Made by a program: the position numbers and the translations under genes. A stretch of 64,000 nt of DNA from Polyangiaceae bacterium UTPRO1 (GTDB lineage Bacteria > Desulfobacterota > Binatia > UTPRO1), in NCBI GenBank assembly GCA_002050235.1, contig MWST01000032.1:600-64599 (forward strand). Reading direction: 5' to 3'. This document shows positions 28,201 through 52,616 of this stretch, piece after piece (position 1 is the first letter of the stretch; each line of letters begins with the position of its first letter). Below the pieces are notes generated by a model. That model worked only from the letters and a program-made list of their open reading frames with translations. It was not told the DNA's origin and did not search any database.

Positions 28201-28236
28201 CGGCGTGCGCCCGGCGAACAGCCGCATCCGCAGCTC

Positions 28237-34464: not shown

Positions 34465-34573
34465 GGGGCCTACACTCTAGCGGCGATCGCGGCGCCGTGC
34501 ACCGCCGGGAATGACGGGCGCAGCACGGCGCGCTTGACCGATTCGGCGCCCTGTACCAATAGGAGCGGCCAAC

Positions 34574-36163: not shown

Positions 36164-36961
36164 TCACGCGGCGGCGACACGGGCGTCGAGGAACGCCGCG
36201 ACCGCGGCATTGAACTCTGCCGGACGCGCCAGGTTCACCAGATGCCCGGCGTCCGCTATCTCGACGAGCTCGGCGCTCGGGATCGCACCGGCGAGGGCGC
36301 GGCTCGCGTCGAGCGAGAGCCGATCGCGCGCCCCCACGACGACGAGCGTCGGCGTTCGCAGACGCGCCGCGCGCGCCGCCAGCGTCGCCGCGTCCGGCTG
36401 CACCGCGATCACGCCGCGCAAGACGTGCGCCAGCGCGTACGGTCGATGTTCGAGGAAGCCGCAGCGCACGAGCGCCGCCCCCTCGGGTGCGAGGCCGGAC
36501 GACGGGCCCCACACGAACTCGGCGCCGGCGGCCTCGAGTCCGTCCCGCTCGATGCGAGCGGCGAAGCGCTCGGCGAGCGCCGTGTAGCTCCCGGGCCGAT
36601 CGCCGCCCGCCGGGAACGCCGCCAAGACGAGGGCGCGGGTCCGCTCCGGGTGAGCGAGCGCGAAGCGCAGAGCGATGCCTGCGCCCATCGACAGGCCGCC
36701 GACCACGGCAGCCGACACTCCGACCCGGTCGAGCACGCGCCCGACGTCGGCGACCAACGCTTCGGGCGTGTACGCAGCGGGATCGAGCGGCGCCTCGCTG
36801 CGCGCGTGGCCGCGGGCATCGAAGCGCACGACCCGGTAGCGAGCCGCGAGGGCGCGCGCCTGGCCGCGGAAGTTGCGAGCGCTGCCGCCGAAGCCGTGGC
36901 CGAGCACCACGACCGGACCCGCCCCCTCGGCCTCGACGTGCAACCGGGGTGCGTCAGCCAT
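36164..36961 (-). CDS. Alpha/beta-fold hydrolase
   Basis: 265 aa. It has HGFGGS, the nucleophile elbow GLSMG and a C-terminal GH. It resembles the 3-oxoadipate enol-lactonase/haloperoxidase-type family. Confidence 0.8.
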   Translation of the reverse strand: MADAPRLHVEAEGAGPVVVLGHGFGGSARNFRGQARALAARYRVVRFDARGHARSEAPLDPAAYTPEALVADVGRVLDRVGVSAAVVGGLSMGAGIALRFALAHPERTRALVLAAFPAGGDRPGSYTALAERFAARIERDGLEAAGAEFVWGPSSGLAPEGAALVRCGFLEHRPYALAHVLRGVIAVQPDAATLAARAARLRTPTLVVVGARDRLSLDASRALAGAIPSAELVEIADAGHLVNLARPAEFNAAVAAFLDARVAAA

Positions 36962-37097
36962 CCGTCACTCCGGCCTGCCGGCGAGCCGATCCGTTACCCC
37001 GGCGCCGCTCCGGCGGCACCTGCCGGCCGCGCCCCTGCCGGCCGCGACCGGCGATCACCGCAATGCAGACCGCAGTTGTCATGCGACTCATCCTGGT

Positions 37098-39083: not shown

Positions 39084-39305
39084 CTCCTGCTTCTCTTCCT
39101 CGATCTCTTCCTCGGTGAGGAAGGGATGCGGCTGGGGGCCCGGCACGATGCCGGCAATGTCCGGATCCTCGCCCGCCACGCCCGGAGAACGCGTCTCCTT
39201 CTCGGCGGCCCGCTGCTCTCGGCGCATCTCCTTGTTCATGCGGCGCTGCTGCCGAGCTTGTTCTCTCTGGCGCTTGGTGACGGAGGTCCGTGACTTACCA
39301 CCCAT
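39078..39305 (-). CDS. Small highly charged hypothetical protein (75 aa)
   Basis: GAAGGAAGG lies 7 nt upstream of ATG 39305. The N-half is Lys/Arg/Gln-rich (KRQREQARQQRRMNKEMRREQR) and the C-tail is acidic (EEEIEEEKQES). Its 3' end overlaps the convergent kinase gene by 6 nt. Confidence 0.55.
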   Translation of the reverse strand: MGGKSRTSVTKRQREQARQQRRMNKEMRREQRAAEKETRSPGVAGEDPDIAGIVPGPQPHPFLTEEEIEEEKQES

Positions 39306-39512
39306 GGAGTTACCTTCCTTCGCGAAGCTCGCAGCGCTTGCCGCGGGGACGTCGGAGCTCGCAACCGCGACGACGACCGGCGCGCACGGTAGCACCGCGC
39401 TCCCGCGGTCACAACCGAACGCCGGCCCTTTGTCAGCACCGCGCCGCCGTCATAAGAGACCGCAGGAGCTGATCGGGGGAATCTCGGGCCGAGCGCGTCG
39501 AGCGGCCGCGCC

Positions 39513-40928
39513 GTGACGGGAGGTGGTGTGCACGCGGAACGACGATCACGGCTTTCGGCGCTCGAACGGGTGCTGCGCATCTTCACGGACATCCGCGCCG
39601 GCGAAGGGCCGACGAGCCTGGCGCTCTTCGCCAACGTCTTCCTGATCCTCTGCGCCTATTATTTCATCAAGCCGCTGCGCGAGAGCTGGATCGCCGTGTC
39701 GGACATACGCGGGCTCTCCAAGATGGAGGTCAAGGCCTACTCGAGCTTCGGACAGAGCCTGCTGCTCGCCGGGATCGTCTCGTACTACGGCCGCCTCTCG
39801 GCGCGGTGGCCGCGCCGGACGCTGATCACGCGCGCGACGCTGGCCTGCATGGCCTGCCTCGTCGTCTTCTGGATGCTCCAACCGGGGTTCATCCTCGCCA
39901 ACCTGCCGGGCTCGGGCATCGCCTTCTATCTCTGGGTCGGCATGTTCGGCGTCTTCATCGTCGCCCAGTTCTGGGCCTTCGCGGCGGACCTCTACGCCGA
40001 CGAGCGCGGCCAGCGGCTACTGCCGCTGATCGGCATCGGTGCGACCGCAGGCGCCGCGGCGGGCTCGTTCTTGACCGAGCAGCTCGTCCGCAGCCGCTGG
40101 GTCGATAGCGGCATGCTGCTGCTCCTCGCCAACGCTCCGCTCGCACTCTCGATCGCGCTCACCCGGATCGCCGATGCCCGCGGCCCGCTCGGCACGCCCA
40201 AGCACGAGCGCGTTCGGCCGACGGCCCCGGCCGCCGCCGACGGCCACGGAGCTCTGGTCTTCGTGCTGCGGCACCGCTACCTCTTCGCCGCCGCGCTGGT
40301 CGCCCTCCTCACCAGCTGGGTGAACACCAACGGCGAGAACCTCCTCTTCCGCGTCGTCCAGGAGGGCCTCGAGCAAGAGCGCCAGGCCAAAGGCATCACC
40401 GATCCGGCGGCGACGATCGGCTTCGTCCGCGCCGGCACCGCCGCTTTCTACGGCGACTATTACTTCTGGGTGAACGTGAGCGCCCTCGTGCTGCAGGCGA
40501 TCGTAGCGTCGCGCCTCCTCAAGTACGGCGGCTTCGGCGTGATCTTCCTCATGCTGCCCACGATCGCCCTCGTCTCCTACTCCTCCATGGCGATCATCCC
40601 GCTGCTATGGATGGTGCGGCTCATGAAGATCGCCGACAACAGCGTCGACTACTCCATCAACAACACCGCCCGACAGGTGCTCTGGCTACCGACGACCGCC
40701 GCCATGAAGTACAAGGCGAAGCCGGTGGTCGACTCGCTGTTCGTACGCTTGGGCGACGGCTGCGCCGCCCTCACGGTGCTGGTGGGCGTACAGGTCCTGC
40801 ACCTCTCGACGCGGCATTTCTTCTACGTGACCGTGGCGCTCGTGCTCCTGTGGTTGGTGATGGCGGCGGGCATCGTCCGCGAGCATCGGCGGCTGGTCGC
40901 GGCGCGCTCCGGCACCGCGGCTGCCTGA
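39513..40928 (+). CDS. TLC (ATP/ADP translocase, Npt1/Npt2)-like MFS-type membrane transporter
   Basis: 471 aa and about 11-12 TM segments. The N-terminal motif FLILCAYYFIKPLRESWIAV resembles the ILFNYxILRxxKDxLVV motif of TLC-family carriers. The family assignment is from memory. Confidence 0.65.
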   Translation: MTGGGVHAERRSRLSALERVLRIFTDIRAGEGPTSLALFANVFLILCAYYFIKPLRESWIAVSDIRGLSKMEVKAYSSFGQSLLLAGIVSYYGRLSARWPRRTLITRATLACMACLVVFWMLQPGFILANLPGSGIAFYLWVGMFGVFIVAQFWAFAADLYADERGQRLLPLIGIGATAGAAAGSFLTEQLVRSRWVDSGMLLLLANAPLALSIALTRIADARGPLGTPKHERVRPTAPAAADGHGALVFVLRHRYLFAAALVALLTSWVNTNGENLLFRVVQEGLEQERQAKGITDPAATIGFVRAGTAAFYGDYYFWVNVSALVLQAIVASRLLKYGGFGVIFLMLPTIALVSYSSMAIIPLLWMVRLMKIADNSVDYSINNTARQVLWLPTTAAMKYKAKPVVDSLFVRLGDGCAALTVLVGVQVLHLSTRHFFYVTVALVLLWLVMAAGIVREHRRLVAARSGTAAA

Positions 40929-40934
40929 CCGGTC

Positions 40935-43900
40935 GTGGCGCGCTCGGCCGCACCCGTCACCCGGCCGCTCTCGGTCGAGCCCGGCGAGGGGCGCGTCCTC
41001 GGCTGGAGCGCCCTGGTCCTCTTCGCCGTCTCGTGGGCCTCGATCTCGGTCGCCAACGTCGCCGACACGCTCTTCTTGAAACGCATCGGCGTCGATCGCC
41101 TGCCCTGGGTCTTCCTCGGGAACTCCGTGCTCCTCACCTTCACGACCTTCGCGGTCGGACGCCTCGCGGTCCGCTGGGAGTCGCGCACGCTGCTCGTGGC
41201 GACGCTCGCGGGACTCGGGCTGGCGCTGGTGCCGCTCTGGCTGCTGGTCGCCGCCGACGTCGGCAGCGCCTTCGTGCTGCTCGTGCTGGCGGCGAAGCAG
41301 CTCGACGCGATCGCGCTCGTCGTCTTCTGGACCGCCGTCGGAAGCCTGGTGAGCGCGCGCCAGGGCAAGCGGCTCTTCGCGCCGATCAGCGCCGGCGGCA
41401 CGTTCGGAGCTGTCGCCGGCAGCTTCGCCTCGGGCTGGCTCGGCCGAACGTTCGGCATCGCGACGCTCCTGCCGTTGGCGGGCATCACCATGGCGCTCGC
41501 CGCAGCAGCGGCTGCGCCGCTGCTGCGCCTGCGGCGCCCGCGCTACTACCGCCCCGCGCCCGTCCACGCGCTCGCCGACGTCGCCGGCCGGCGGTTCGGC
41601 CCGCTGTGGCGCACCAGCGCCCTCTTCCGCGTCCTCGCGCTGACCTCGCTCCTGGCCGGCATCCTCGGCCCGATGCTCTATTTCGAGCTCGCCTACGTCG
41701 CCGACCGGGCCACCTCCGGCCACGGCGGCGAGCAGCGCCTCCTCGACCTCTACGCGCTCTTCCGCGGCTGGCTGAACGTCGGCGTCATGGTGATCCAGGT
41801 GACCGGTACGTCCGCAGTCTTTCGCCGCCTCGGCGTGCCGCTGGCGGCGGCCCTCTCGCCCGTGATCTACCTCCTCGGACTCGTCGGGCTGAGCGTGCGG
41901 CTGAGCCTCGCCGCCGGCATCGCCGCGGTCGCCGGCGCCAACCTGCAGGACCACGCCGTCTACGATCCCGCGCAGCGCATCCTGGTGACCCTATTCCCCG
42001 AGCGCGTGCGCGCCGCCGTGACGACGCTGATCGACGGCCCCGTGAAGCGGGCCGGCGGCCTGATCGGAAACGTCGTCATCATCATTGCCCTGGCCGTCGG
42101 TACTCCCGCCTGGGTCGGCTACGCCGGCCTGCCGATCGCGGCGGCGTGGCTGGCGGCGGCGCTCGTCCTCTGGCGCCTCTACCCGGCCCTGCTCCTGCAG
42201 GTAGCGACCGCGCGGCGCAGCGACTTCGAGGAACCGCCGCCCCTCACCGAGTTGCTCGACGGCGGCACGGTGCGGCTCCTCGAGCAGAGCCTCGGCGGCA
42301 GCGACCTCGAGCGCTGCCGCGCCGCCTGCGACGTCGTCGTCGAGGCGGCTCCGCGCCGCGCCGTGCGCGCGCTCGCCCGCGCGCTCGGCGCCGCACCGGC
42401 AGCGCATCGGCCGCTCCTCGTCGCCGCCCTGCAGCGCGTGCTCGGCGAGGACTCTGCCGCGGCGCTCGTTCACGACGAGAGCGCGCGCCTGCTGGCGGCG
42501 CTCCTGGCCGCGCCCGCGGGCCTCGGCGCCCTCGATCGCGCCCACCTCGTGCAGGCCTACGGGCGCCTCCTCGGCGCCGCCGCCGCGCAGTCGCCGGCGC
42601 TGCGCACGGCGCTCGCCGACCCGCATCCCGCGGTCGCGCTCGCGGCGCAGGCGGCCCTCGCCCGGGCCGGCGCCGCCGCGAACACGGCGCTCGACGCCGC
42701 CCTCTCCGCTGCGTTCGCGCACCCTGACGCCGACGTGCGCCGGATCGCGGGCGAAGAGCTCGGCATCGAGCTCCGCCGGCCGGCAGCGGACGGCGCGGCG
42801 TGGGCGGTCCGGCTCGAGCAGTTGCTGGCCCGCCTCGAAGCGCCCGCGGACCGCGCCCACGCCGCCGCGACCCTGGCCGCGGCCGCAGCCGTCCACGGCG
42901 CGCGCCTCCGTCCGCACGCGGCGCGCATCCTCGTCCATCGCCGCGACGACGATCCCGCCGTCCGCATCGCCGTGCTCGACGTCATCGGCCGCGCCCGGCT
43001 CCTCGAAGCGGCGGAGAGCCTCGTCGATCATCTGACCGCCGCCGACCCGCGCGAAGCGGCGGCGGCGTGCGCGGCGCTGCGCGCCCTCGGTGCCGACGCC
43101 GTCGACGTCCTCCTGCACACGCTCCGCTGCGGCCGTTTCCGCGCCCGCGAAGCGGTGCGATCGATCCTCGTCGGCCTGCCGATCGATCCCGAGCGCCTGC
43201 GGGTGCTCCTCGACCGCGAGGTCGAGGTCATGCGCCGCCTGATCCTCCGCACCGAAGCGCTGCGCGTCGGCGGAGTCGCAGACGCGGTGCTGCAACGCCT
43301 CCACGAGCAGCTCGACGAGAGCTCCCACACGGCGGTAGTGCTGATCGCGACGGCGCAGGACGACGAGCGTCTGGCGCGCATCGGCCGCCTCCTCGGGCGA
43401 ACGCACGGCACGCGCGACCGCGCCCTCGTGCTCGAGGCCCTCGAAGCGCTCCTACCGCAGCGCGAGCGCGAGCGCCTGCTGCCGCTGCTCGATGACGCCA
43501 ATCCGGGAGCTCGCGCACGTCGCGCCATGGAGGCGCTCGGGCGGCCGCTGCCGACGTTCGCGGAGGCGGTTGCCGAGGTGCTCGCCTCCGGCGACGGGCT
43601 CGGTCGGGATCTCCTGCGCGGCACCCTGCCGGCGCCGACGCTGGCGGACCTCGGCGGCGACGTGACATACGAGCGGCCGGACCAGCGTATGACCCACGTC
43701 GACATGATCCTGGCGCTCCGCCGGCTCGACCTCTTCGCGGGGCTGACGACCCGGCAGCTCTCCGAGCTGGCGCGGGTCGTCGCCGAGTGCCGGGTCGCGG
43801 CGGGCGAGACGATCGTGCGCGAGGGCGAGCCGGCCACGCAGATGTACTTCATCGTCGCCGGCGCGGTGCGGGTCACCAGGGAGGGCGCGGCGGTATCGGC

Positions 43901-44147
43901 TCTCGGCCCGGGCGAGTTCTTCGGCGAGATCGCCGTGCTCGACGGCGAGCAACGCTCGGCGTCGGTGACCGCCGACGGCCCCGTGCACCTCCTCCGCCTC
44001 GATCGCCACGACCTCTTCGAGGTCATGGAGGAGCACCCGGCCATAGCGGTCGCCATCTGCCAGACGCTCGGCCGCCGCATTCGCGAGCTCCTCGACGAGC
44101 GCGCCGACGCGGCGGCGGCTCCGGGATCGCCGCAGAGCCGCTTCTAG
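40935..44147 (+). CDS. TLC-like membrane domain fused to HEAT-like repeats and a C-terminal cyclic-nucleotide-binding domain
   Basis: 1070 aa, with a GTG 6 nt after the upstream stop. The N-terminal ~420 aa are polytopic. The middle has Ala/Leu-rich HEAT-like repeats (DPHPAVALAAQAAL, HPDADVRRIAGEEL, DDDPAVRIAVLDVIG). The C-terminal cNMP fold is FFGEIAVLDGEQRSASV. Confidence 0.75.
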   Translation: MARSAAPVTRPLSVEPGEGRVLGWSALVLFAVSWASISVANVADTLFLKRIGVDRLPWVFLGNSVLLTFTTFAVGRLAVRWESRTLLVATLAGLGLALVPLWLLVAADVGSAFVLLVLAAKQLDAIALVVFWTAVGSLVSARQGKRLFAPISAGGTFGAVAGSFASGWLGRTFGIATLLPLAGITMALAAAAAAPLLRLRRPRYYRPAPVHALADVAGRRFGPLWRTSALFRVLALTSLLAGILGPMLYFELAYVADRATSGHGGEQRLLDLYALFRGWLNVGVMVIQVTGTSAVFRRLGVPLAAALSPVIYLLGLVGLSVRLSLAAGIAAVAGANLQDHAVYDPAQRILVTLFPERVRAAVTTLIDGPVKRAGGLIGNVVIIIALAVGTPAWVGYAGLPIAAAWLAAALVLWRLYPALLLQVATARRSDFEEPPPLTELLDGGTVRLLEQSLGGSDLERCRAACDVVVEAAPRRAVRALARALGAAPAAHRPLLVAALQRVLGEDSAAALVHDESARLLAALLAAPAGLGALDRAHLVQAYGRLLGAAAAQSPALRTALADPHPAVALAAQAALARAGAAANTALDAALSAAFAHPDADVRRIAGEELGIELRRPAADGAAWAVRLEQLLARLEAPADRAHAAATLAAAAAVHGARLRPHAARILVHRRDDDPAVRIAVLDVIGRARLLEAAESLVDHLTAADPREAAAACAALRALGADAVDVLLHTLRCGRFRAREAVRSILVGLPIDPERLRVLLDREVEVMRRLILRTEALRVGGVADAVLQRLHEQLDESSHTAVVLIATAQDDERLARIGRLLGRTHGTRDRALVLEALEALLPQRERERLLPLLDDANPGARARRAMEALGRPLPTFAEAVAEVLASGDGLGRDLLRGTLPAPTLADLGGDVTYERPDQRMTHVDMILALRRLDLFAGLTTRQLSELARVVAECRVAAGETIVREGEPATQMYFIVAGAVRVTREGAAVSALGPGEFFGEIAVLDGEQRSASVTADGPVHLLRLDRHDLFEVMEEHPAIAVAICQTLGRRIRELLDERADAAAAPGSPQSRF

Positions 44148-46081
44148 CGGACCCGGACTCTCCCGGCGTCGACGTCGGCGAGGAGCGCGGCGATGCGCTG
44201 CTGCAGCCGTCCGATCTCCCCGGCGGTGAGGCCGAGCTGGATCTTGCCGCGGGCGATACGAACCCCTTTGGCCGGATCCAGAGGAGCGGTGCGGCGCCCG
44301 AGCCGGAAGATGCCGGCCGCGTCGACGTCCATGTCGAAGAGCGTCGACAGGCGCTCGACCTCCTCCGGCGGCAGGGCGCGGAGCCGGGCTACGGGATCGG
44401 CGCGGAGCCAGGGGACGCGGAGCGTGTTCCAGTTGCGTACGAAGAAGTTCCACGGGAACCCTTCGAAGGCGATGCCGTTGTCGATCGAGAATACGCGCGG
44501 ATCCTCGGGGTCGGTGGAGATCAGGAAATTGCCGTCGCGGCCGTCGCGATGGTCGATGAGATAGGTGAGCAGGTTCATGTCCGCGAGGTGCGCGCCGTAG
44601 TGCGGATCGCGCTCGACGCGCTCGTCGATGTCGTCGTTCAGGTCGTCGGCGACCGCCACGTCCTCCATCCACGCGGCGAAGAGCCCGAGGACGCAGCGGC
44701 TGCCGGGGAGAGTCGGCTTCGCGTCCTTCAAGACGCGGTAGACGTCGACGGGGATGCAGCGCGGGACCGTCGTCGGCACGACGTAGTCGTCCTCGTCGAA
44801 GATCCAGCGTTGTATGGCGTAGGCGGCGACCTCTTTGCGCGGCGAGTTGTTCCAGCCGTCGAGCGTCGGCCTCGGGAACGGCTTCCACTTGACCTTCATG
44901 CTCCGGCCGTCGGCGAAGCGCACCGTGAACCGCGACGCCCCGGTGACGCCGGCGCCGGCGCGCTTCACCTCGCTGATCTCGAAGTCGTCGAGGGCGAGCT
45001 TCAGATCGAGCACCGACGGCGCCATCGGCCAGTTGCGCGGCAGCGCCTTGCCGGCCTGCCGCTGCGGTCCGAATAGATGCTCGGCGGCGCGATGGGCGAG
45101 CTGCGCGATCAGCTCGCCGCGGTAGGCCGGCGTCGCCTCGGTGAATACCGCGAGCGCGAACTGGTGGCCGTCGGGAGCGCGGACGATACCGGCGTCGGCG
45201 TAGTCGGGACCCCAGGTGCCGCTCTTCGCGTAGACCTCGAGGCCCGGAATGCGCGCCGCGCCGCCGGCGATCCGGCGCGCCAGGTGCGGCTGCTGCTTCG
45301 GATCACGCTTCATGCGGCGGCGGACGGCGGCGGAGTCCTCGGGCGTGAGCGCGCGATCGGTGGCGAGGAGCCCCAGCAACTTCGCCGTACCGATCGCCGT
45401 CATCGCCTGGCGGTTCGGATACTCGCCGTCGGCGCTGACGAGACCGCCGGCGACGCCATGGTCGCGGAGGAACTGCCGATCGCGACCGACGAGATCGCCG
45501 CCGCCGTCGTAGGTCGGATTGACGCAGTGGAGGTCGTCGATGCCGAGGCTCTGGAGCCAGCGCTTCACCACCTGCCGGCGCTCGCGGTAGCGCGCGTACT
45601 CGCCGGGCGGCAGCTCCGGACCCGGCGCGGTGTCGGTCAGCCGGGCGAAGACCTTCTGCGTCGCTCGATTGCTGCTCTCGCGGATCATCGCCTCGAGCTC
45701 GGCATCGAGCCCGGGATCGATGACCAGCCGCCCTTCCTCCTGCCAGCGATACGCCGCCATCAGGTAGACGAACTTGACGACGCTCGCCGGATAGATCGGC
45801 CGATCGCCGCCGGCGTGCGCGAGCCGTGGCGGCCCGTCGCTCGGAAGGTCGAGGAGTGCGACGCCGACTGCGGCGCGCCGCAGCGCCGGGTCGAAGTCGG
45901 CCAGCGTCGCCATCGTCCGCTCGAGGAAGGTCTGCAGCTCGGAGGCGGGCCGGATCGTCGCCAGCCATTGGCGTGCCGCCGCGGCCGGCGGCGGCGGCGC
46001 CGCCGCCGCGCCCCGCGCGCACCCGACGACCAGCAGCACCACCGCCATCCGCGACCAAGAGCGCATGCAGCTCCGCACCAT
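44144..46081 (-). CDS. Lipoprotein: class A beta-lactamase-fold serine hydrolase fused to a type II PI3/PI4-kinase-like domain
   Basis: 645 aa from ATG 46081, with the lipobox LLVVGC. The N-domain has SVVK (SxxK), SSN (the SDN position) and KSG (KTG). The C-domain has KVKWKPF, RKEVAAYAI, IDHRDGRDGNFLI (catalytic-loop-like) and IDNGIAF (DFG-like). Confidence 0.7.
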   Translation of the reverse strand: MVRSCMRSWSRMAVVLLVVGCARGAAAAPPPPAAAARQWLATIRPASELQTFLERTMATLADFDPALRRAAVGVALLDLPSDGPPRLAHAGGDRPIYPASVVKFVYLMAAYRWQEEGRLVIDPGLDAELEAMIRESSNRATQKVFARLTDTAPGPELPPGEYARYRERRQVVKRWLQSLGIDDLHCVNPTYDGGGDLVGRDRQFLRDHGVAGGLVSADGEYPNRQAMTAIGTAKLLGLLATDRALTPEDSAAVRRRMKRDPKQQPHLARRIAGGAARIPGLEVYAKSGTWGPDYADAGIVRAPDGHQFALAVFTEATPAYRGELIAQLAHRAAEHLFGPQRQAGKALPRNWPMAPSVLDLKLALDDFEISEVKRAGAGVTGASRFTVRFADGRSMKVKWKPFPRPTLDGWNNSPRKEVAAYAIQRWIFDEDDYVVPTTVPRCIPVDVYRVLKDAKPTLPGSRCVLGLFAAWMEDVAVADDLNDDIDERVERDPHYGAHLADMNLLTYLIDHRDGRDGNFLISTDPEDPRVFSIDNGIAFEGFPWNFFVRNWNTLRVPWLRADPVARLRALPPEEVERLSTLFDMDVDAAGIFRLGRRTAPLDPAKGVRIARGKIQLGLTAGEIGRLQQRIAALLADVDAGRVRVR

Positions 46082-46171
46082 AGCCGGAAGCGCACCGCAC
46101 GTCAGCGGCGCCAGCGGTATCTCGGGCCGGCGAATTCCGGTACAACCCGGCCGCTCATGGAGGGATTTGCG

Positions 46172-49100
46172 ATGGAGCGGCGGCGACGCGTGCTGGCGGT
46201 GGTCGTATTCTCGGGAATGCTCGCCGCGGGCGGCGCCGCGGCGGCATTCGAGGCGCCGGCGCTGTCGCCGGGACAGCAGAAGACCCTGAAGCAGAACTTC
46301 GCGCTCTGTCTCGGCAAGCTGAAAGGGCCCTATACCGAGAACTTCTGCCTCTGCCGCGACGGGCGCAAGCTCCCTGTCCAAGGGCCGAACGGCGCGGTGC
46401 GCATCCCCTGTCCGAACCCGCTGTTCTGCGCCGCCTACCGCGCTCCCTGGGCCGAGGCCCTCGCCCATGAGCGCATGTACATCGCCAACATCTTCTCTCG
46501 CGACGAGCATCTCTGGTCGACGTTCCCGAACCACCACGACCTCGTCCGCGGCTACGTGCTCGAGAAGTACTTCGTCGAGACGCACCCCACCCACAAGCTC
46601 GCGCAGATGAAGCAGTACCGCGGACTTTCCAGCGCCGAGGAAGAGCTTCCGGCAGCGCTCGCGTTCTTCGAGAAATATCTCGGCGGCGACGAATTCGACG
46701 GCGACCGCCACTTCCTCCTCGCCTACGAGCTGCAGCGCCGCTACTTCGCGCGCGACGACGTCGGCCAGGTGCAGAAGATCCGCGACCTGGCAGTACGGAT
46801 CGAGCGCGCCAAGGCCGACTTCAAGCCGCTGAAGGACGCCGTCCACAACCAGGTCTCGGCGGGCCTGATCCCGAGCCTCGTCGCCTACCGCGCCAAGCTG
46901 CCTGCCGGCGCGACCCGCGATCAGCTCGACGATCTCGTCGGCGAGATCCGCAAGCTCACGAGCCTCGACGAGAGCGCGCTCGCGCCGCAGGTCGGTGCGA
47001 TCGCCGATCCGGCCGTGCGCGCGGCGCTGACGAAGCTCCTGCCGAACCCGTCGACGCCGCCCGTCGAAGCGGCGACCGCGCTCGGGACGATGATGGCGAC
47101 GGCGCGGCGCGCCGTCGGCGAGAGCACGACCGCGCCCGCCGACAGACGCCGCCTCGTCGACCTCGACATCACCGCCGCGCAGGTGCTGCAGCAGCGCGGC
47201 AGCGCCGCTCTCGCCGGCCCCGGCACGACGGCGCAACAGCACGTCGCAGTGCTGGGGGCGCTCTCCGCGGCCGCCTACGGCGCCGGGCTCCTGAACGCGC
47301 GCGAGTACGAAGCGGCGAGCACGGCGATCCGCGAGCTCGGCGCCGACGCCGAGCCCGATCGCGCCGACTTCGCGCGCCGCCTGCGCGTGGCGAAGCGCGT
47401 CGTCGAGTGGGCCCAGGGCAACGCCGAGCTCGCCTTCGCCGAGGTGATGGCGCCCTGGACCTTCCTCCTCCCCGACGTCGCCGGCATCCGCGACGACGTG
47501 CTGCGCGGGTCGCCGCTCATCCTCTACGCCGAGGTCGTGAACCGGCTCGACGACTTCGCCGCCGGCGGCGAGCGGCCGAAGCATCGCTTCTTCGGCACCG
47601 CCGTCGAGGGCGACGTCCGGGCGCTGAATCCCGGCCTCGCCTACGGTCGACTGCGCGTCGGCCCCAAGGACCACGGCTACACGCGCGACGACATCGTGGC
47701 GCTCACGGAGACGCCCGCCGACCTCGAGCCGGCAGCGGGCATCCTGACGCAGGGCGAGGGCAACGTGCTCTCGCACGTCCAGCTCCTGGCTCGCGCCCTC
47801 GGCATCCCCAACGTCGTGCTCGGCTCGCGGGCGTTCGACGTCCTGCGCATGCACGACGGCAAGGCGGTGGTGCTGGTCGTGACCCCCGGCGGCCGGGTCG
47901 TCCTCGAGGAAGCTTCGCGCCTGTCGCCCGAGATCCGCGAGGCCTACGCCGAGTACACGCGCAACGAGACCCGCCGCACCGCCGGCGCGCTCGGCGGCGG
48001 CGCCGGACGCCTCCACATCGATCGCGCCAAGATCGACCTCGGCCCGAAGCTCCCCATCGACCTCAGAGACGTGCGCCGCAAGGACTCGGGCGTGTTCTGC
48101 GGCCCCAAAGCGGCATTCCTCGGCGAGCTGAAGTCGATCTTTCCCGACCACGTGGCGCGCGGGATCGTGGTGCCGTTCGGCGCCTACCACGCGCACTACT
48201 CGCGGGCGGCAGTGATCGTGCCCGCAGAGCTGCGCGGCGATAACGTCGCCGTTCCCGGTGAGCCTCTCTCGGCCTTCGTCGAGCGCACCTACCATACGTT
48301 CTTCGCCGAGCTCGTCCCGTCGGGAAAGAGCGAGCGCGAGCTCTCCGCCTGGATCGAGCCGCGCCTCGCCGTCGTCCGCCACACCATCCGCCAGACACCG
48401 CTCGATCCGGCCCTGCGCCAAGCGATCCGCGACGGACTGGCGAAGAACGGGCTCCTGCGCGGCGGCGACGACACCGCCGGCTGCTTCGTGCGCAGCGACA
48501 CCAACGTCGAGGATCTCGACAATTTCAACGGCGCCGGTCTGAATCTCACCCTCTTCAACCGCCGCACGCTCGACGACATCTATTCCGGCCTGGCCGAGGT
48601 GTGGGCCTCGCCTTTCCAGTTCCGCTCGTTCTCGTGGCGGCAGACGCTGATCGACGACCCGGTCTGGGTGCTGTCGTCGGTCGTGATCCTGGAGTCGGTG
48701 CCGTCGGAGAAGTCCGGCGTGCTGGTCACCGCCGACGTCAACGACGGCGCCCCCGGAAAGATGCTGGTCGCGACCTCGGAAGGCGTCGGCGGCGCCGTCG
48801 ACGGCACCTCGGCCGAGACCCTGCTCTGGTCGCCGCAGGGCGTCGAGCTGGTCACGCTCTTCAAGTCGCCGTGGCGGACCGCACTCGACGCCGAGGGCGG
48901 CAGCAAGATAGTTCCGTCGACCGGCCGCGACACCGTGCTCGAGCCGGCGGAGCTCACGCAACTGGTCGCCGCCGGCAAGAAGATCGGCGCCGAGCTGCAG
49001 CCGGTCCGCGACGCCGCGGGAAAACCGAAGCCCTGGGACATCGAGTTCGGCTTCACCGGCGGCAAGCTCTGGCTCTTCCAGTGCCGCCCGTTCCTCGGCA

Positions 49101-49198
49101 ACGACGAGCTCCGCAACATCCCGGCGCTGGCAGCACTGGACAGTACGCCGAGCGGGACGCGGGCGCAGCGACTCTCGCTCGCGCAGGTGCTGCGGTGA
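46172..49198 (+). CDS. Signal-peptide protein with PEP-utilizer phosphohistidine swivel domain followed by PPDK_N-type ATP-grasp domain (dikinase-like)
   Basis: 1008 aa, with GGAGGG 7 nt upstream of ATG 46172. The signal is VVVFSGMLAAGGAAAA, followed by a 6-Cys N-region. The swivel motif is GILTQGEGNVLSHVQLLARALGIPNVV (His codon 47774-47776). The ATP-grasp motifs are GPKAAFLGEL, VRSDTNVEDLDNFNGAGLNLT, SGVLVT and WDIEFGFTGGKLWLFQCRP. There is no PEP/pyruvate TIM-barrel domain. Confidence 0.75.
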   Translation: MERRRRVLAVVVFSGMLAAGGAAAAFEAPALSPGQQKTLKQNFALCLGKLKGPYTENFCLCRDGRKLPVQGPNGAVRIPCPNPLFCAAYRAPWAEALAHERMYIANIFSRDEHLWSTFPNHHDLVRGYVLEKYFVETHPTHKLAQMKQYRGLSSAEEELPAALAFFEKYLGGDEFDGDRHFLLAYELQRRYFARDDVGQVQKIRDLAVRIERAKADFKPLKDAVHNQVSAGLIPSLVAYRAKLPAGATRDQLDDLVGEIRKLTSLDESALAPQVGAIADPAVRAALTKLLPNPSTPPVEAATALGTMMATARRAVGESTTAPADRRRLVDLDITAAQVLQQRGSAALAGPGTTAQQHVAVLGALSAAAYGAGLLNAREYEAASTAIRELGADAEPDRADFARRLRVAKRVVEWAQGNAELAFAEVMAPWTFLLPDVAGIRDDVLRGSPLILYAEVVNRLDDFAAGGERPKHRFFGTAVEGDVRALNPGLAYGRLRVGPKDHGYTRDDIVALTETPADLEPAAGILTQGEGNVLSHVQLLARALGIPNVVLGSRAFDVLRMHDGKAVVLVVTPGGRVVLEEASRLSPEIREAYAEYTRNETRRTAGALGGGAGRLHIDRAKIDLGPKLPIDLRDVRRKDSGVFCGPKAAFLGELKSIFPDHVARGIVVPFGAYHAHYSRAAVIVPAELRGDNVAVPGEPLSAFVERTYHTFFAELVPSGKSERELSAWIEPRLAVVRHTIRQTPLDPALRQAIRDGLAKNGLLRGGDDTAGCFVRSDTNVEDLDNFNGAGLNLTLFNRRTLDDIYSGLAEVWASPFQFRSFSWRQTLIDDPVWVLSSVVILESVPSEKSGVLVTADVNDGAPGKMLVATSEGVGGAVDGTSAETLLWSPQGVELVTLFKSPWRTALDAEGGSKIVPSTGRDTVLEPAELTQLVAAGKKIGAELQPVRDAAGKPKPWDIEFGFTGGKLWLFQCRPFLGNDELRNIPALAALDSTPSGTRAQRLSLAQVLR

Positions 49199-50859
49199 CG
49201 GCGCACACCCGGCGCGGCGGCGGGCGGCTTTGGCGTCTGCTCGCCGCCGCCGCGGCCGCTCTCACGTTCGTCACGCTCCGCGTCGCGAGCGCGGCCCTCG
49301 ACGCCGGCGGCGACACCGCCTGGGACGGCAGCGAGCCGCCGCCCGGGGTCTACTTCCACTGGTACGAGCCGTCCTTCTACGCCGGCTTCGCGCCCCGCAC
49401 CCAGGATCCGAGTCGTCTCCACATCGAGCTCGGGCGCGGCAACCAGGTGCGGGTAACGGTCGTCCTCGGCGACGCCGAGCTCGACGCCTACCTGGGCGAC
49501 CTCCAGGCGCGACGCGCGGTCGTCCAGGAGCTCGTCGACAGCCGGATCATCACCCTCAGCACCAACCGCGCCTGGGAGCGCTTCACCAGCGCCCTCGACG
49601 ATGCCGGCGTCGCGGCGGCGCTGGCGGCGCGGGCGGAGACGAAGCCCGAGGCCTGGCGGGCGCGGAGCCTCGCGGTGATGACGGCGCTGAACCCCGGGCG
49701 CGTGTTCCGGATCGCTATGCCGCTCGCCGCGGTCGCCGCTCGCTGGCGGCCGCTGCTGGCACGCCTCGACGGCAGCGATCCGATAGAGCGCCTCGACGCC
49801 GCCAACGCCGCGCTGCCGGGTCGCATCGTGCTCGAAGAGCTGACACCGCCGCTCGGCGCCGCGCTCGATCGCTGCCTCGATCCGGCGCGCGGCCCAGAAA
49901 GCGCGAAGCCCGCTTACGAGCTCTGCGTCAAGGACTTCATCGAGACCGCGAGCGCGCGCCGCTACCGCGTCGTCGACGGCGCCGTCGTCGCCCACGAGTT
50001 TACCGCCATCTACCCCGCCGGCACGGTCGAGGGCTCGACGACCTACAGGGGCGAGAAGCTGCCGGACTTCGGGGTCACCGGCGTCTGGCCGCTCATCCGC
50101 CGCACCAATGGCCGCGGCATTCTCGGGATGGTCGACTACCTGTCGCCGAATCCCGGCTACGGCTTCATCCCCATGCTGCCCTACCAGTACGCCGGCGGCA
50201 TCACCTACAACGCCTTCCACAATGCCGGCGTGCGCTGCCAGTTGAACGGCACGCCGTTCCTGCCGAGCGCCTGGCGACAGGTCGCCGGCGAGCGCAGCGG
50301 CAAGCCGTACGAGAACCTCTGGATCGTCGGCCGCGGTCCGACGTCGCACGGCTGCACGCGGCTGCCGTCAGGCCACATGAGCGAGCTCCGCCAGATCGTG
50401 CCGTCGGAGTCGGACGCGCTCCTCCAGGTGAAGACCTATCGCGATCTGCCCGGCTGCTACGACGTCTTCGACATCGACGGCGACGGCGCCCCCGAAGTGA
50501 TGGGCGTCCAGTACTACCTCGCGTACCGCAGCAACGAGCACACGCCGGTGAAGGCCTGGGTGAGCAACCGGCGCGAACCCTTCTACCGCTGGCTCTACGG
50601 CAACAACGTCGTTCTCGGACCGGTCGGTGCGGCCCGCCTCCAAGAGGTGCCGGTCTGCCGCTTCGCCGGCAAGAAGGCGGCGGAGCGCGCGGTGCTCCGC
50701 GACCTGCCGCTCTACGAAGCCAAGTACCAGCCCGAGCAGATACAGTTCTTCCGTAGCAAGGCGGCTCCGGACAGCGCTGCCGGAGTCGAGCTCAACCGGG
50801 AGTTGCGCAAGGTCGGCGCCGGACACGTCCTCGAGCGCTCGCGCCTGCTGCTGCGCTGA
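49195..50859 (+). CDS. Exported protein with C-terminal L,D-transpeptidase (YkuD)-like catalytic motif, paralog 1
   Basis: 554 aa from a GTG that overlaps the upstream stop (GTGA). It has a hydrophobic N-terminal signal-like segment and a ~380-aa unassigned N-region. The catalytic motif is GRGPTSHGCTRLPSGHMSELRQIV (Cys codon 50353-50355). Confidence 0.7.
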   Translation: MTAHTRRGGGRLWRLLAAAAAALTFVTLRVASAALDAGGDTAWDGSEPPPGVYFHWYEPSFYAGFAPRTQDPSRLHIELGRGNQVRVTVVLGDAELDAYLGDLQARRAVVQELVDSRIITLSTNRAWERFTSALDDAGVAAALAARAETKPEAWRARSLAVMTALNPGRVFRIAMPLAAVAARWRPLLARLDGSDPIERLDAANAALPGRIVLEELTPPLGAALDRCLDPARGPESAKPAYELCVKDFIETASARRYRVVDGAVVAHEFTAIYPAGTVEGSTTYRGEKLPDFGVTGVWPLIRRTNGRGILGMVDYLSPNPGYGFIPMLPYQYAGGITYNAFHNAGVRCQLNGTPFLPSAWRQVAGERSGKPYENLWIVGRGPTSHGCTRLPSGHMSELRQIVPSESDALLQVKTYRDLPGCYDVFDIDGDGAPEVMGVQYYLAYRSNEHTPVKAWVSNRREPFYRWLYGNNVVLGPVGAARLQEVPVCRFAGKKAAERAVLRDLPLYEAKYQPEQIQFFRSKAAPDSAAGVELNRELRKVGAGHVLERSRLLLR

Positions 50860-50882
50860 CGACCTGCCGCCAAGGAGATCCC

Positions 50883-52616
50883 ATGCGCACGACGACCAGC
50901 ATCATCGCAGCACTGGCGCTGTTTTCCTGGATGCCCGGCACGGCGGCGGCCAAGGACTTCGCCGCCCCCCGGCTCGCCGGCGATCGCGCCGCGCCCGGGC
51001 TCATGGTCGAGGAGCCGCCGCGCTACGGCGTCTTCTACGACGCTCCGGAGCCGTCGTTCTACACCGGCTTCGCCCCGCGCACGCAGGACCCCGCCGCTCT
51101 CCACATCCATCTCGGGCGCGGCAACCAGCTGCGGGTGACCGAAGTGCTGTCGGACGCGGTCGTCGACGAGTACGCGCGCGACCTCGCCGAGCGCCGCCGC
51201 ACCTACCGCGCGCTCGTCGACTCCGGCCGGCTGCAGCTGACGCAGAACACCGCCTTCGAGGCGTTCGAACGCCGGCTCGACGCCCTCGGCCTCGACGACC
51301 TGGCGAGCGCGGAAGGAGCGCTGGCGCCCGACGCGCTCCGCGCCCGCAACCTCGACCTCATCGAGACGCTGAATCCCGGACGCGTCTTCCGGATCGCGAT
51401 CCCGGTGCGGAAGCTCGCCGCCCGCTGGATCGGCGAGCTCGACCGCATCACCGGCGGCGCCCGCGCGCGTCTCGACGCAGGCCGCAGGCTCGACCTCGCG
51501 AACGCGCTCCTGCCGACGCGCCTCTGGCTCGCCGACCTCCCGGCCGACGCCGCCGCCGCTCTCGACGATCTCGTCCGTCGCGCCCCCGCCGATGCCGGTG
51601 ATACGGCCGCTGTCGACGCCCTCGTACCCGCCTACGGCGCCCTCCTCGCGCGCGTCGGCGGCGGCCGCTATCCGGTCCGGGACGGCGTCGTGCGCTTCGC
51701 GGAGTTCACGGCGATCTACCCGGTCGGTACCGTCGCCGCGTACACGACGTGGCGGGGCCGGACGATCCCGCTGTATCCGACGCCGGGCCGGCGCGCCCTC
51801 ACCACCCATCAGCGCTCCCTGGTCGCCGACCACATCCCGGTCGAGGACTCGTACAGCTGGTCGCCGTGGCTGCCGTACATGCACGTGACGCCGACGATGC
51901 ACAACGCCATCCACACGCCGTGGTGGAAGATGGGTCCGGGCGACGCCGGGTTCCTTCCCGCGTCGTGGCGGCAGGTGGCCGACGGCAGCCGCGACGGCGC
52001 GCCGTTCACGAAGCTCTGGCTGCTCTCCCGCGGCCCCATGTCGCACGGCTGCACGCATCTGAACACCGGCCACATCGCCGAGCTCCGCCAGATCCTTCCC
52101 GCCGACGGCAACCGCCTGTACGACGTCGAGGTCTTCCTCACCCGCTCCGAGCATTACGACGTCTTCGACATCGACGGCGACCTCGTGCCCGAGGTGATGG
52201 GCGTACGCTACTTCATCGCCTACTCGCTGATCGCCGGGAAGCCGGATCGCCTGCGGGTGAAGAACGAGCGCCGGGCCTTCTACGACTGGCTCTACGGCGG
52301 CGATCTCCAGTGGCAAGGAGACCAGGGCGTCTTTCACGACGCCCACGAAGCCCGCTTCAGCGGCCGCGACGCGCGCGAGGGTCGAGGCTACGCGCGCATC
52401 CTGCTCCGCGAAGCGCCCTACCAGCCGGAGACCGTGCAGTTCTACCGCATGATCGACATCCCCTTCGCTCGCGCGCTCCGCCAGGTCGGGCTTCACCGGC
52501 GCGCGCTCGAAGTCCCCGATCGGCGGCAAGCCGCGAACGCGCCGATGATGCGCGGCGACGCCGGCGGCGCGGGCCGCTACGCGCAGCCGTTGTCCGCACC
52601 CCGGCGCAGCCGCTAG
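50883..52616 (+). CDS. Exported protein with C-terminal L,D-transpeptidase (YkuD)-like catalytic motif, paralog 2
   Basis: 577 aa, with AGGAG 5 nt upstream of the ATG. It has a clear Sec signal (IIAALALFSWMPGTAAA). It is colinear with paralog 1 (PSFYTGFAPRTQDP, LNPGRVFRIAIP). The catalytic motif is SRGPMSHGCTHLNTGHIAELRQIL (Cys codon 52050-52052). Confidence 0.75.
   Translation: MRTTTSIIAALALFSWMPGTAAAKDFAAPRLAGDRAAPGLMVEEPPRYGVFYDAPEPSFYTGFAPRTQDPAALHIHLGRGNQLRVTEVLSDAVVDEYARDLAERRRTYRALVDSGRLQLTQNTAFEAFERRLDALGLDDLASAEGALAPDALRARNLDLIETLNPGRVFRIAIPVRKLAARWIGELDRITGGARARLDAGRRLDLANALLPTRLWLADLPADAAAALDDLVRRAPADAGDTAAVDALVPAYGALLARVGGGRYPVRDGVVRFAEFTAIYPVGTVAAYTTWRGRTIPLYPTPGRRALTTHQRSLVADHIPVEDSYSWSPWLPYMHVTPTMHNAIHTPWWKMGPGDAGFLPASWRQVADGSRDGAPFTKLWLLSRGPMSHGCTHLNTGHIAELRQILPADGNRLYDVEVFLTRSEHYDVFDIDGDLVPEVMGVRYFIAYSLIAGKPDRLRVKNERRAFYDWLYGGDLQWQGDQGVFHDAHEARFSGRDAREGRGYARILLREAPYQPETVQFYRMIDIPFARALRQVGLHRRALEVPDRRQAANAPMMRGDAGGAGRYAQPLSAPRRSR

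Follow-up and report, generated by a model that had tools for sequence, protein, structure and literature searches.

Textbooks treat carriers of the NTT type as a hallmark of energy parasitism and of plastids, and fusions of the NTT-HEAT-cNBD type occur also in Chlamydia, cyanobacteria, and oomycetes. A membrane transport protein with a C-terminal cytoplasmic cNMP-binding domain is likewise found in the sperm Na+/H+ exchanger SLC9C1, in MloK1, and in HCN and CNG channels, where this domain tunes activity. To our knowledge, the 2017 catalogue of the many NTT homologues in free-living bacteria—fusions included—has not been followed by the assignment of a role. The NTT-HEAT-cNBD fusion itself was published by Major, Embley and Williams (2017, Genome Biol Evol, PMC5381601), who also reported that substrates vary within the NTT family and that some tested members did not transport nucleotides.

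Here, we describe a gene pair within a stretch of 64,000 nucleotides from Polyangiaceae bacterium UTPRO1 (the window). Gene 1 (39513..40928, + strand) encodes a putative stand-alone 12-helix carrier of the NTT/TLC superfamily, and gene 2 (40935..44147, + strand; ORF of 1070 aa) a predicted NTT-like domain followed by a HEAT-like solenoid and a cNMP-binding domain. This order of carrier, HEAT repeats and C-terminal cNMP-binding domain is that of the published fusion family, which, like gene 2, is also present in free-living Deltaproteobacteria. An earlier note on this DNA had placed the two genes 6 nt apart; both ORFs and this gap (TGA at 40926-40928, GTG at 40935) are found as described, and every motif it quoted is present in the translations. 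As the gap is only 6 nt, the genes are probably co-translated. The length of 471 aa given there for gene 1 holds for the longest ORF; the true start is probably the GTG at 39528, which yields 466 aa, since a Shine-Dalgarno sequence (GGGAGG, 39518-39523) lies upstream of it and the identical database protein P0003 is also 466 aa long. GC3 values of 0.92 for gene 1 and 0.93 for gene 2 match the expectation for real genes in a 70% GC genome. A scan of 38900-46300 gave no match to an Rfam family or riboswitch. No promoter-like site turned up, and terminator-like sites are not more frequent than in shuffled sequence. A database search with gene 1 returned more than 2400 homologues; with gene 2, it returned about 110 of full length, in which the architecture is unchanged. 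Both genes are conserved among uncultured Binatia, Myxococcota, and 'Deltaproteobacteria'. The host had been taken to be free-living, in agreement with genome sizes of 4.4-7.7 Mb in the same genus.

Both genes share with the characterized NTTs—AtNTT1 (9j3j, 9j3l, 9j3m) and CpNTT1 (9j3n, 9j3o); PF03219, TCDB 2.A.12—the 12-helix MFS-type fold and, in a motif-level comparison, the motifs of helices 1, 4-5, and 11-12. The characterized NTTs have a long helix 3-4 loop that is missing here, and both proteins differ from them further by an identity of only ~15-17%, scores under the curated cut-offs, a free-living owner, and the outward direction proposed below. The topology is derived from AF2 models and MFS/NTT precedent; a crude Kyte-Doolittle profile with positive-inside counting failed to separate the 12 helices.

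For gene 1, the earlier note's likeness to TLC proteins is borne out at the superfamily level, by family profile and fold, and not by the single sequence. The Pfam search proposed there gives 18.6 bits against PF03219 (cut-off 21), and TIGR00769 gives 22 bits (cut-off 387), both below threshold. Among 44 diverse relatives of gene 1, 37 are matched by PF03219 (best E 2.4e-17), and a paralogue at 58553 in the window reaches 21.0 bits. The profile of the gene 1 family aligns over the full length to C. pneumoniae NTT1 (9j3n) with E 1e-25 (positions 13-447 versus 7-504) and to Arabidopsis NTT1 (9j3j) with E 1.6e-20; its PDB matches are confined to NTT structures, and the next hit has E 0.004. A Foldseek search with the AF2 model (pLDDT 81, pTM 0.83) ranks 9j3m, 9j3l, 9j3n, and 9j3o first to fourth (TM-score 0.62-0.72, E down to 9e-11) and generic MFS proteins below them. 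The membrane domains might have proven to be generic MFS proteins, which the earlier note would have counted against its proposal; they are not, and the closest structures are NTTs. Gene 1 is hence described as a predicted stand-alone carrier within a large and divergent clade of the NTT/TLC (ATP:ADP antiporter) superfamily, and the family assignment of both genes is considered highly probable.

The N-terminal domain of gene 2 (residues 1-425; 40935..42209, + strand) is delineated as a 12-helix NTT-like MFS domain by the helices of the AF2 model, fold match, hhalign, and tree. In the model (pLDDT 83.6), 12 long helices occupy residues 19-415; among membrane proteins, AtNTT1 is the closest in fold (9j3m, target TM-score 0.71). 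By sequence, this domain matches only MFS_1 (21-25 bits, below threshold) and not TLC, and its profile finds no sequence match in the PDB even at E 10, NTT structures included. Its link to the characterized NTTs is thus transitive, by way of the gene 1 family (hhalign 98.6%, E 1e-15) and of the PF03219-positive fusion protein P0239; in this sense, the TLC-like character ascribed to the first ~420 aa stands as superfamily-level homology. P0239 scores above threshold for TLC (38 bits), HEAT_2 (83 bits), and cNMP_binding (65 bits), and the gene 2 profile aligns to it with a probability of 100% (E 1.4e-45) over 957 columns, at positions 25-1073. As the alignment to this triply positive protein runs end to end, gene 2 is by its sequence a member, if a divergent one, of the published NTT-HEAT-cNBD family. 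The gene 2 clade differs from that family in being so divergent that TLC and HEAT_2 stay under the Pfam thresholds.

In a tree of membrane domains, which had the TLC paralogue of this genome as its root and left out the characterized NTTs, the gene 2 domain is nested among the fusions and separate from the clade of gene 1 (SH-aLRT 99 for either clade). The membrane domains of the two genes are old paralogues; an origin of the gene 2 carrier domain by recent tandem duplication of gene 1 is ruled out by the tree. Many charged residues within the gene 2 membrane helices are invariant, among them K49, R50, R142, K145, R359, and R372.

The stretch for which about 450 aa of HEAT-like repeats had been reported is an all-helical repeat region at residues of about 440-905 in the AF2 model (42252..43649, + strand; ~25 helices, ~470 aa, pLDDT mostly >85). 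HEAT_2 scores 18.3 bits on gene 2 itself, under the cut-off of 27.7; several orthologues are matched by PF13646, and the solenoid aligns to the HEAT_2-positive stretch of P0239. It is followed by the cNMP-binding domain (residues of about 921-1061; 43695..44117, + strand), identified by PF00027, alignment, and phosphate-binding cassette. The canonical fold claimed for this end of the protein is confirmed by a PF00027 score of 78.1 bits (cut-off 27.5) and by a β-roll cNMP-binding fold at 950-1061 of the model. A degenerate cassette would have spoken against the earlier note's proposal; the cassette FGEIAVLDGEQRSA is intact, with F996, G997, and E998 invariant and R1007 and A1009 at least 90% conserved. 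The domain aligns with the functional CNB domains of PKG, PKA, MloK1, and CRP, and its FGE and RSA fall on the cassettes of the functional PKG, PKA, and MloK1 domains. We regard it as likely a real cNMP sensor, and solenoid and sensor are both predicted to be cytoplasmic. Directly after gene 2 and on the same strand, a gene for a HisKA-receiver-class III cyclase is found at 9 of 68 orthologue loci, and the window's own genome encodes three cyclases and five CNBD proteins.

MloK1, HCN, and SLC9C1 each have a CNBD whose fold is matched by that of gene 2, whereas the transport domains of these proteins and of the CNG channels are unrelated to that of gene 2, and the whole-chain TM-score is only ~0.1. 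Furthermore, gene 2 places a solenoid of 470 aa between carrier and sensor—unlike SLC9C1 and the channels.

The pair is part of a larger conserved module of exported enzymes. Downstream, on the opposite strand, lies a gene for a lipoprotein of 645 aa (44144..46081, - strand; lipobox LLVVGC), whose N-terminal part is β-lactamase-like (Beta-lactamase2, 53.6 bits); it has a homologue at 25 of 68 gene 2 loci and at 29 of 80 gene 1 loci. Its C-terminal 300 aa have no match in Pfam or PDB profile searches. A kinase-like domain had been considered for this part and was dropped, as the profile searches came back empty and the motifs DHRDGRDGNF and IDNGIAF were the sole hint. The next gene (46172..49198, + strand) encodes a predicted exported dikinase-like enzyme of 1008 aa, with a signal peptide, a swivel-His domain, and a C-terminal ATP-grasp (PPDK_N). 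The dikinase is GWD-like. Its signal peptide is kept in 18 orthologues, homologues lie within 10 kb at 30 of 68 gene 2 loci and 27 of 80 gene 1 loci, and across 31 related genomes it has the same presence/absence pattern as gene 1. Both gene models are backed by translation, signal peptides, and orthologue lengths. Two paralogous proteins of 554 and 577 aa, each with a signal peptide, follow (49195..52616, + strand), with homologues at 16-20 gene 2 loci and no significant Pfam match; a YkuD assignment was rejected at E 0.14 at best. All four neighbours thus carry an export signal—signal peptide or lipobox—and their export is a prediction from these signals.

The synteny was assessed in a set of 30 gene 2 loci with at least 5 kb of flank on each side. 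Gene 1 is adjacent in 13 of these and nearby in 8. A gene for the dikinase or the β-lactamase-like protein is present at 20 of the 21 gene 2 loci with gene 1, versus one of the nine without it. In loci of the Myxococcota type, the order is shuffled and the module genes still stay together. An independent set seeded with gene 1 agrees: it has 30 loci that span 9 kb or more, and a dikinase or β-lactamase-like gene is present at 23 of them; gene 2 adjoins gene 1 in only 11 of the 80 gene 1-seeded loci. Such synteny indicates a functional link and is silent on transport direction and substrate. The module is patchy: of 121 genomes sampled across the phylum, only the window's own yielded the dikinase, and horizontal movement is probable. 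This pairing with a stand-alone NTT-like gene and an exported-enzyme module also sets gene 2 apart from the fusions as described in PMC5381601; the pairing is absent around three canonical members, and no dikinase lies near these three NTT-HEAT-cNBD genes.

As the pair stands beside exported, ATP-using enzymes in a free-living bacterium, it may feed the periplasm with ATP. We propose that both carriers are nucleotide exchangers which supply periplasmic ATP, gene 2 under the control of cAMP or cGMP, and give this inferred reading a probability of roughly 45%. Both carriers would work with the exported ATP-grasp dikinase, the β-lactamase-like lipoprotein, and the other exported proteins: ATP would leave for the periplasm, ADP, AMP, or phosphate would return, and the exported ATP would drive ATP-dependent chemistry beyond the inner membrane. 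An outward direction of NTT-type exchange is expected because the cytoplasmic ATP/ADP ratio is high and the membrane potential inside-negative. The mitochondrial ADP/ATP carrier, which moves ATP out of an energized, inside-negative compartment in exchange for ADP, behaves as proposed here; this is a functional analogy only, as that carrier is an SLC25 protein with six helices and of unrelated fold and family, and no homology is claimed. Gene 1 would be the core carrier of the module and gene 2 an add-on, in which cAMP or cGMP at the C-terminal domain would set its own transport or its effect on gene 1, the signal being relayed via the HEAT solenoid. Dikinases release AMP and phosphate, not ADP, and therefore a plain ATP/ADP exchange would leave the cycle unclosed. 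Taken separately, a nucleotide as the carrier substrate appears about as probable as not, and ATP export to the periplasm somewhat short of an even chance. The literature holds no transport assay for any member of either clade nor for any NTT-HEAT protein. According to a review, the route of ATP into the periplasm is unexplained and no translocase homologue is known for that step (PMC7432876).

The opposite direction has precedent, as every characterized NTT serves its owner as an importer. Given the firm family homology, both carriers might act as scavengers that take up ATP, NTPs, NAD, or other nucleotides from outside, as happens in Chlamydia, Rickettsia, and plastids, with cNMP tuning uptake to the energy state—an adjustment of ATP uptake by cAMP was proposed by Major et al. 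(2017, PMC5381601)—and with exported neighbours that are unrelated or only loosely related. We consider such import unlikely. The hosts are free-living with genomes of 4-8 Mb, and external ATP is scarce for them. It is established carrier knowledge that electrogenic ATP/ADP exchange in an energized cell tends toward a net loss of ATP, not a gain. Import also gives no account of the tight link to exported ATP-grasp enzymes, which withstands rearrangement. Another possible cargo, in place of ATP, is a compound that the exported enzymes consume or make—perhaps a muropeptide, a phosphorylated piece of glycan, or some other organic anion—moved in the manner of organophosphate/phosphate antiporters or AmpG-type MFS permeases. 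The low identity of both clades to characterized NTTs, which stems from structural alignments, would fit such a cargo, as would the sole match of the gene 2 membrane domain to MFS_1 by sequence, the cell-wall-related folds of the module (the β-lactamase-like domain and a weak YkuD-like motif), and periplasmic glucan genes close by in the window. Nevertheless, an exported ATP-grasp dikinase would still require a nucleotide donor beyond the inner membrane, the nearest relatives in sequence and fold are NTTs rather than UhpT, GlpT, or AmpG-type carriers, and the NTT signature motifs FW.FA, KR...G.GA, and K.K.K..D are retained; a cargo of this kind seems improbable to us.

A further reading concerns gene 2 only, which might be a membrane-anchored sensor or scaffold ('transceptor') instead of a transporter: the HEAT repeats would recruit partners, the CNBD would read cNMP, and gene 1 alone would transport. 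Most gene 1-seeded loci indeed combine gene 1 and the exported module without gene 2, some orthologues sit in a pure signalling context with a receiver-cyclase and a receiver gene adjoining, and HEAT repeats are typically scaffolds for protein–protein interaction (Major et al. 2017, PMC5381601). The strong conservation of the membrane domain, with its many invariant charged helix residues, and the full 12-helix carrier fold argue against a loss of transport, and we hold this reading to be decidedly improbable.

What is new here is the context: genetic linkage joins the carriers to exported enzymes that have ATP-binding folds and, at related loci, joins the carrier with the sensor to a cyclase. 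The locus thereby points to a concrete and testable role for the NTT carriers of free-living bacteria. Should ATP export fail, the pair would still be a clean model for the effect of a HEAT-cNBD extension on an NTT-type carrier. If ATP export is borne out, it would alter the view of an ATP-free periplasm and account for part of the ATP that bacteria release, and a natural small-molecule-gated MFS carrier would be at hand for study. More broadly and more tentatively—we consider it possible, with the odds against it—NTT-type carriers might run in reverse in free-living Gram-negatives of several uncultured lineages, where ATP export across the inner membrane would power periplasmic ATP-dependent enzymes dedicated to this supply, and the NTT-HEAT-cNBD protein might act as a cyclic-nucleotide-controlled valve in this lineage. 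This would give the widespread NTT-HEAT-cNBD family its first function and provide a molecular answer to the supply of ATP to the periplasm.

The observation of the earlier note, a carrier-like gene pair whose second member is fused to HEAT repeats and a cNMP-binding domain, is confirmed as a whole, and its interpretation as a second-messenger-gated transporter or transceptor is supported. Both reading frames are present as noted, gene 1 at 39513–40928 (+, 471 aa) and gene 2 at 40935–44147 (+, 1070 aa), and the 6-nt spacing holds: gene 1 ends in TGA at 40926–40928 and gene 2 starts with GTG at 40935. Their third-position GC of 0.92 and 0.93, respectively, matches genuine genes of a genome of ∼70% GC; hence, both look real. 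The start of gene 1 probably requires a small correction from 39513 to the GTG at 39528—the Shine–Dalgarno sequence GGGAGG (39518–39523) lies ahead of this codon, and the resulting 466 aa equal the length of an identical database protein, P0003. In the region of the gene pair, a promoter-like site, a convincing terminator, and an Rfam element were looked for, and none was found. A sensor kinase gene (PAS–HisKA–HATPase, 36873–39083, +) lies directly upstream of gene 1, with 430 bp between them, an arrangement otherwise conserved solely in L015, L016, and L020, which are among the closest relatives. The closest relatives L012–L017 and L020 carry a Y_phosphatase3-family phosphatase gene (264 aa) immediately 3′ of gene 2 (e.g., L013:13188–13982) and a gamma-glutamyltranspeptidase gene preceding gene 1 (e.g., L013:6175–7965), both of which are absent from the window.

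Taken alone, gene 1 scores below the cut-offs of PF03219 (18.6 versus 21 bits) and TIGR00769 (22 versus 387 bits). At the 50% clustering level, its family comprises 6219 representatives at E up to 0.001 and 472 at E up to 1e-30, and many of its more than 2400 close homologues carry the source annotation "AAA family ATP:ADP antiporter" or "NTP/NDP exchange transporter". PF03219 is matched by 37 of 44 diverse family representatives (best E 2.4e-17), and the 44-member family profile matches, in the PDB, Chlamydia pneumoniae NTT1 (CpNTT1; 9j3n, E 1e-25, full length) and Arabidopsis NTT1 (AtNTT1; 9j3j, E 1.6e-20), the first match after the NTT structures reaching only E 0.004. For the AlphaFold2 model of gene 1 (pLDDT 81, pTM 0.83), the top four Foldseek matches are AtNTT1/CpNTT1 structures with TM-scores up to 0.72, and generic MFS proteins rank after them. 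In alignments, this family and NTTs share Y..K/R..R/K-D/E (helix 1), FW.FA with KR...G.GA after it (helices 4–5), and K.K.K..D (near helix 12); the long loop between helix 3 and helix 4 of the solved NTTs is missing in gene 1. Together, the PF03219 matches of its relatives, the NTT profile matches, and the fold matches place gene 1 in the NTT/TLC superfamily as a member of a divergent clade, so that the TLC likeness noted earlier holds at superfamily level, by family profile and fold rather than by its own scores. The genome bears two further carriers of this type. A second gene 1-type paralogue (58553–60094, +; 51% identity; PF03219 21.0 bits, exactly at the cut-off) lies 6 kb past the exported-enzyme cluster, adjoins a phosphoglucomutase gene (55554–57194, −) and an MgtC/DUF4010 gene (60965–62281, −), and has counterparts kept 23–38 kb from gene 1 in same-genus genomes. 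A third, more canonical TLC-family gene on contig 12 of the same genome (12619–13938, −; L007:1507–2937) is 28% identical to gene 1 and matches PF03219 in three pieces covering most of the model.

The AlphaFold2 model of gene 2 (pLDDT 83.6) divides the protein into a membrane domain of 12 long helices (residues 19–415), a solenoid of ∼25 helices (residues ∼440–905), and a cNMP-binding β-roll with C-helix (residues 950–1061), the relative packing of which is uncertain given a pTM of 0.56. In Pfam, only cNMP_binding is strong (78 bits), with MFS_1 and HEAT_2 below threshold; MFS_1 is also the sole Pfam match of membrane-domain family members, and a membrane-domain sequence profile found no match in the PDB. 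The best membrane-protein fold match of this domain is AtNTT1 (9j3m, target TM-score 0.71). Homology is established by profile alignments, on the one hand to the gene 1 family (405 columns, hhalign 98.6%, E 1e-15) and on the other to P0239 (positions 25–1073, E 1.4e-45), a database protein in which TLC (38 bits), HEAT_2 (83 bits), and cNMP_binding (65 bits) all exceed their Pfam thresholds. The TLC-like character of the membrane domain is thereby borne out. As for the HEAT repeats, the helical solenoid and the alignment with HEAT_2-positive P0239 speak for them, whereas the protein's own HEAT_2 score falls short. The cNMP-binding domain is canonical as claimed: its phosphate-binding cassette, FGEIAVLDGEQRSA, is intact rather than degenerate, and the domain aligns with functional domains of PKG, PKA, MloK1, and CRP. 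Across the family, F996, G997, and E998 do not vary, and conservation of R1007 and A1009 reaches at least 90%. We take the R-S-A form of the cassette to resemble that of the cAMP binders CRP and MloK1, a likeness that does not settle specificity. The 12-helix MFS topology and an Arg-rich central loop suggest that the HEAT and CNBD regions are cytoplasmic; a crude hydropathy test of the topology was uninformative.

NTT–HEAT and NTT–HEAT–cNBD fusions were described by Major, Embley and Williams in 2017 as monophyletic, widespread among bacteria (Deltaproteobacteria, cyanobacteria, and Chlamydiae among them), present in oomycetes too, and functionally uncharacterised at that time; the authors suggested that ATP uptake is possibly adjusted by cAMP (PMC5381601). 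The architecture is thus of a known kind, of which gene 2 is a very divergent member, and our full-text literature search found no later functional study of these fusions. In a maximum-likelihood tree of membrane domains, which leaves out characterised NTTs and is rooted on the more canonical contig 12 paralogue, the gene 2 clade is nested in the clade of all HEAT–cNBD fusions (SH-aLRT 99), with the gene 1 family apart in a clade of its own (support 99). These separate clades rule out a recent tandem duplication as origin of the pair. Among three canonical NTT–HEAT–cNBD genes from elsewhere, none has a dikinase nearby, two adjoin a divergently transcribed MFS gene, and genes for a CRP-type regulator and a CHASE2-cyclase lie in the vicinity of one.

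Downstream of the pair, the window encodes a series of proteins predicted to be exported. A convergent lipoprotein gene (44144–46081, −; lipobox LLVVGC), whose stop overlaps that of gene 2 by 4 nt, combines a β-lactamase-like N-terminal domain with a C-terminal domain without assignment. It is followed by a 1008-aa dikinase-like protein (46172–49198, +; hereafter the dikinase) with a signal peptide conserved in 18 orthologues and, in the order known from glucan-water dikinases, a swivel-His domain ahead of a C-terminal ATP-grasp domain (PPDK_N), and by two paralogous signal-peptide proteins (49195–50859 and 50883–52616, both +), neither with an assignment; a YkuD match in the two was not significant (E 0.14). 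Within the C-terminal 300 aa of the lipoprotein, the motifs LIDHRDGRDGNFL and IDNGIAFEGFP resemble a kinase catalytic loop and Mg-binding loop; Pfam and PDB profile searches with this domain, which is limited to the closest relatives (L014, L015, L016, and L082), gave no match, leaving the kinase likeness unsupported. In two related genomes, the dikinase matches (G127:C8:216703–219707 and G132:C25:13672–16633) are fragmented by several in-frame TGA codons and are possibly pseudogenes or assembly frameshifts; the gene 1 match of G132 also bears three TGA codons. A periplasmic glucan/sugar-uptake block (27100–36148) encodes a MalK-type ATPase, an F5/8 type C protein, a solute-binding protein, and MdoG, and in a related Binatia locus (L003/L043), MalK, GH144-like, GH1, GH94, and F5/8-C genes surround the pair; this proximity may reflect lineage synteny, not a functional link.

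This neighbourhood is conserved. GTDB species representatives supplied 68 loci with gene 2, MAGs throughout (Binatia, Myxococcota, "Deltaproteobacteria", and distant Riflebacteria), whose neighbour genes we scored and clustered; in 30 of these loci, gene 2 is flanked by 5 kb or more to either side. The dikinase or β-lactamase-like gene is present in all 13 loci with gene 1 directly upstream, in seven of the eight with gene 1 within 10 kb, and in one of the nine where gene 1 was not found near gene 2. The module genes also cluster in Myxococcota-type loci despite a different order (gene 1, β-lactamase-like gene, an unassigned gene, dikinase on the minus strand, gene 2). A second, independently gathered sample, comprising 80 metagenome loci with gene 1 as seed, agrees: 30 are at least 9 kb long; 16 of these contain the dikinase and 7 more the β-lactamase-like gene, and gene 2 adjoins gene 1 in only 11 of the 80. 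In a set of 31 related genomes, presence and absence of gene 1 coincide with those of the dikinase within the window's family: both occur in the window's genus (8/8 genomes) and in two other genera, whereas searches of eight genomes from two further genera found neither. Gene 2 is distributed likewise, bar one genome that is 61% complete. Owing to kinship, these genomes are not independent samples, and the pattern amounts to one or two evolutionary events.

A second context, without gene 1 and dikinase, is found in 9 of the 68 gene 2 loci. Here, gene 2 is followed after ∼30 nt or less by a co-oriented HisKA–receiver–class III cyclase gene (472–480 aa), which a single-domain receiver gene often accompanies (Myxococcota-type MAGs; L064:9971–19613, L045, L048, L052, L053, L055, L057, L063, and L070). 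This position directly 3′ of gene 2 lends independent genomic support to the CNBD reading a locally made cyclic nucleotide. L064 also bears a second, HEAT_2-rich fusion gene on the opposite strand, with an esterase gene between the two. The window's own genome, a 3.8-Mb MAG (89% complete), encodes three class III cyclases and five CNBD proteins, and same-genus genomes of 4.4–7.7 Mb indicate free-living organisms, as had been supposed.

We regard as demonstrated to which families the two genes belong, how their domains are ordered, that the sensor is intact, and that linkage to predicted exported proteins, an ATP-grasp enzyme among them, is conserved. According to a review, the route of ATP into the periplasm is unknown, and no translocase that would carry it there is known to be encoded by Gram-negative bacteria (PMC7432876). 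In an energised free-living cell, an NTT-type exchanger would move ATP out and ADP, AMP, or phosphate back in, and the exported ATP would serve the exported dikinase along with whatever other partners use ATP. Gene 1 would be the core carrier, being the most frequent companion of the module. Gene 2 would add cNMP control, acting on its own transport or, via the solenoid, on a partner. This ATP-export reading, the likeliest of those considered, has weak points: transport direction is not derivable from synteny, and the dikinase yields AMP and phosphate, which plain ATP/ADP exchange leaves unbalanced. Of the alternatives, import of nucleotides by the gene pair is unlikely, as is movement of a substrate or product of the exported enzymes by the carriers; that gene 2 is a sensor and not a carrier appears less likely still.

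The fused architecture itself has been published already, yet it is functionally blank. New are three findings that together make a specific mechanism testable: gene 2 is conserved as the partner of an NTT-like carrier that stands alone, both genes belong to a module of predicted exported ATP enzymes, and sister gene 2 loci are linked to a cyclase.
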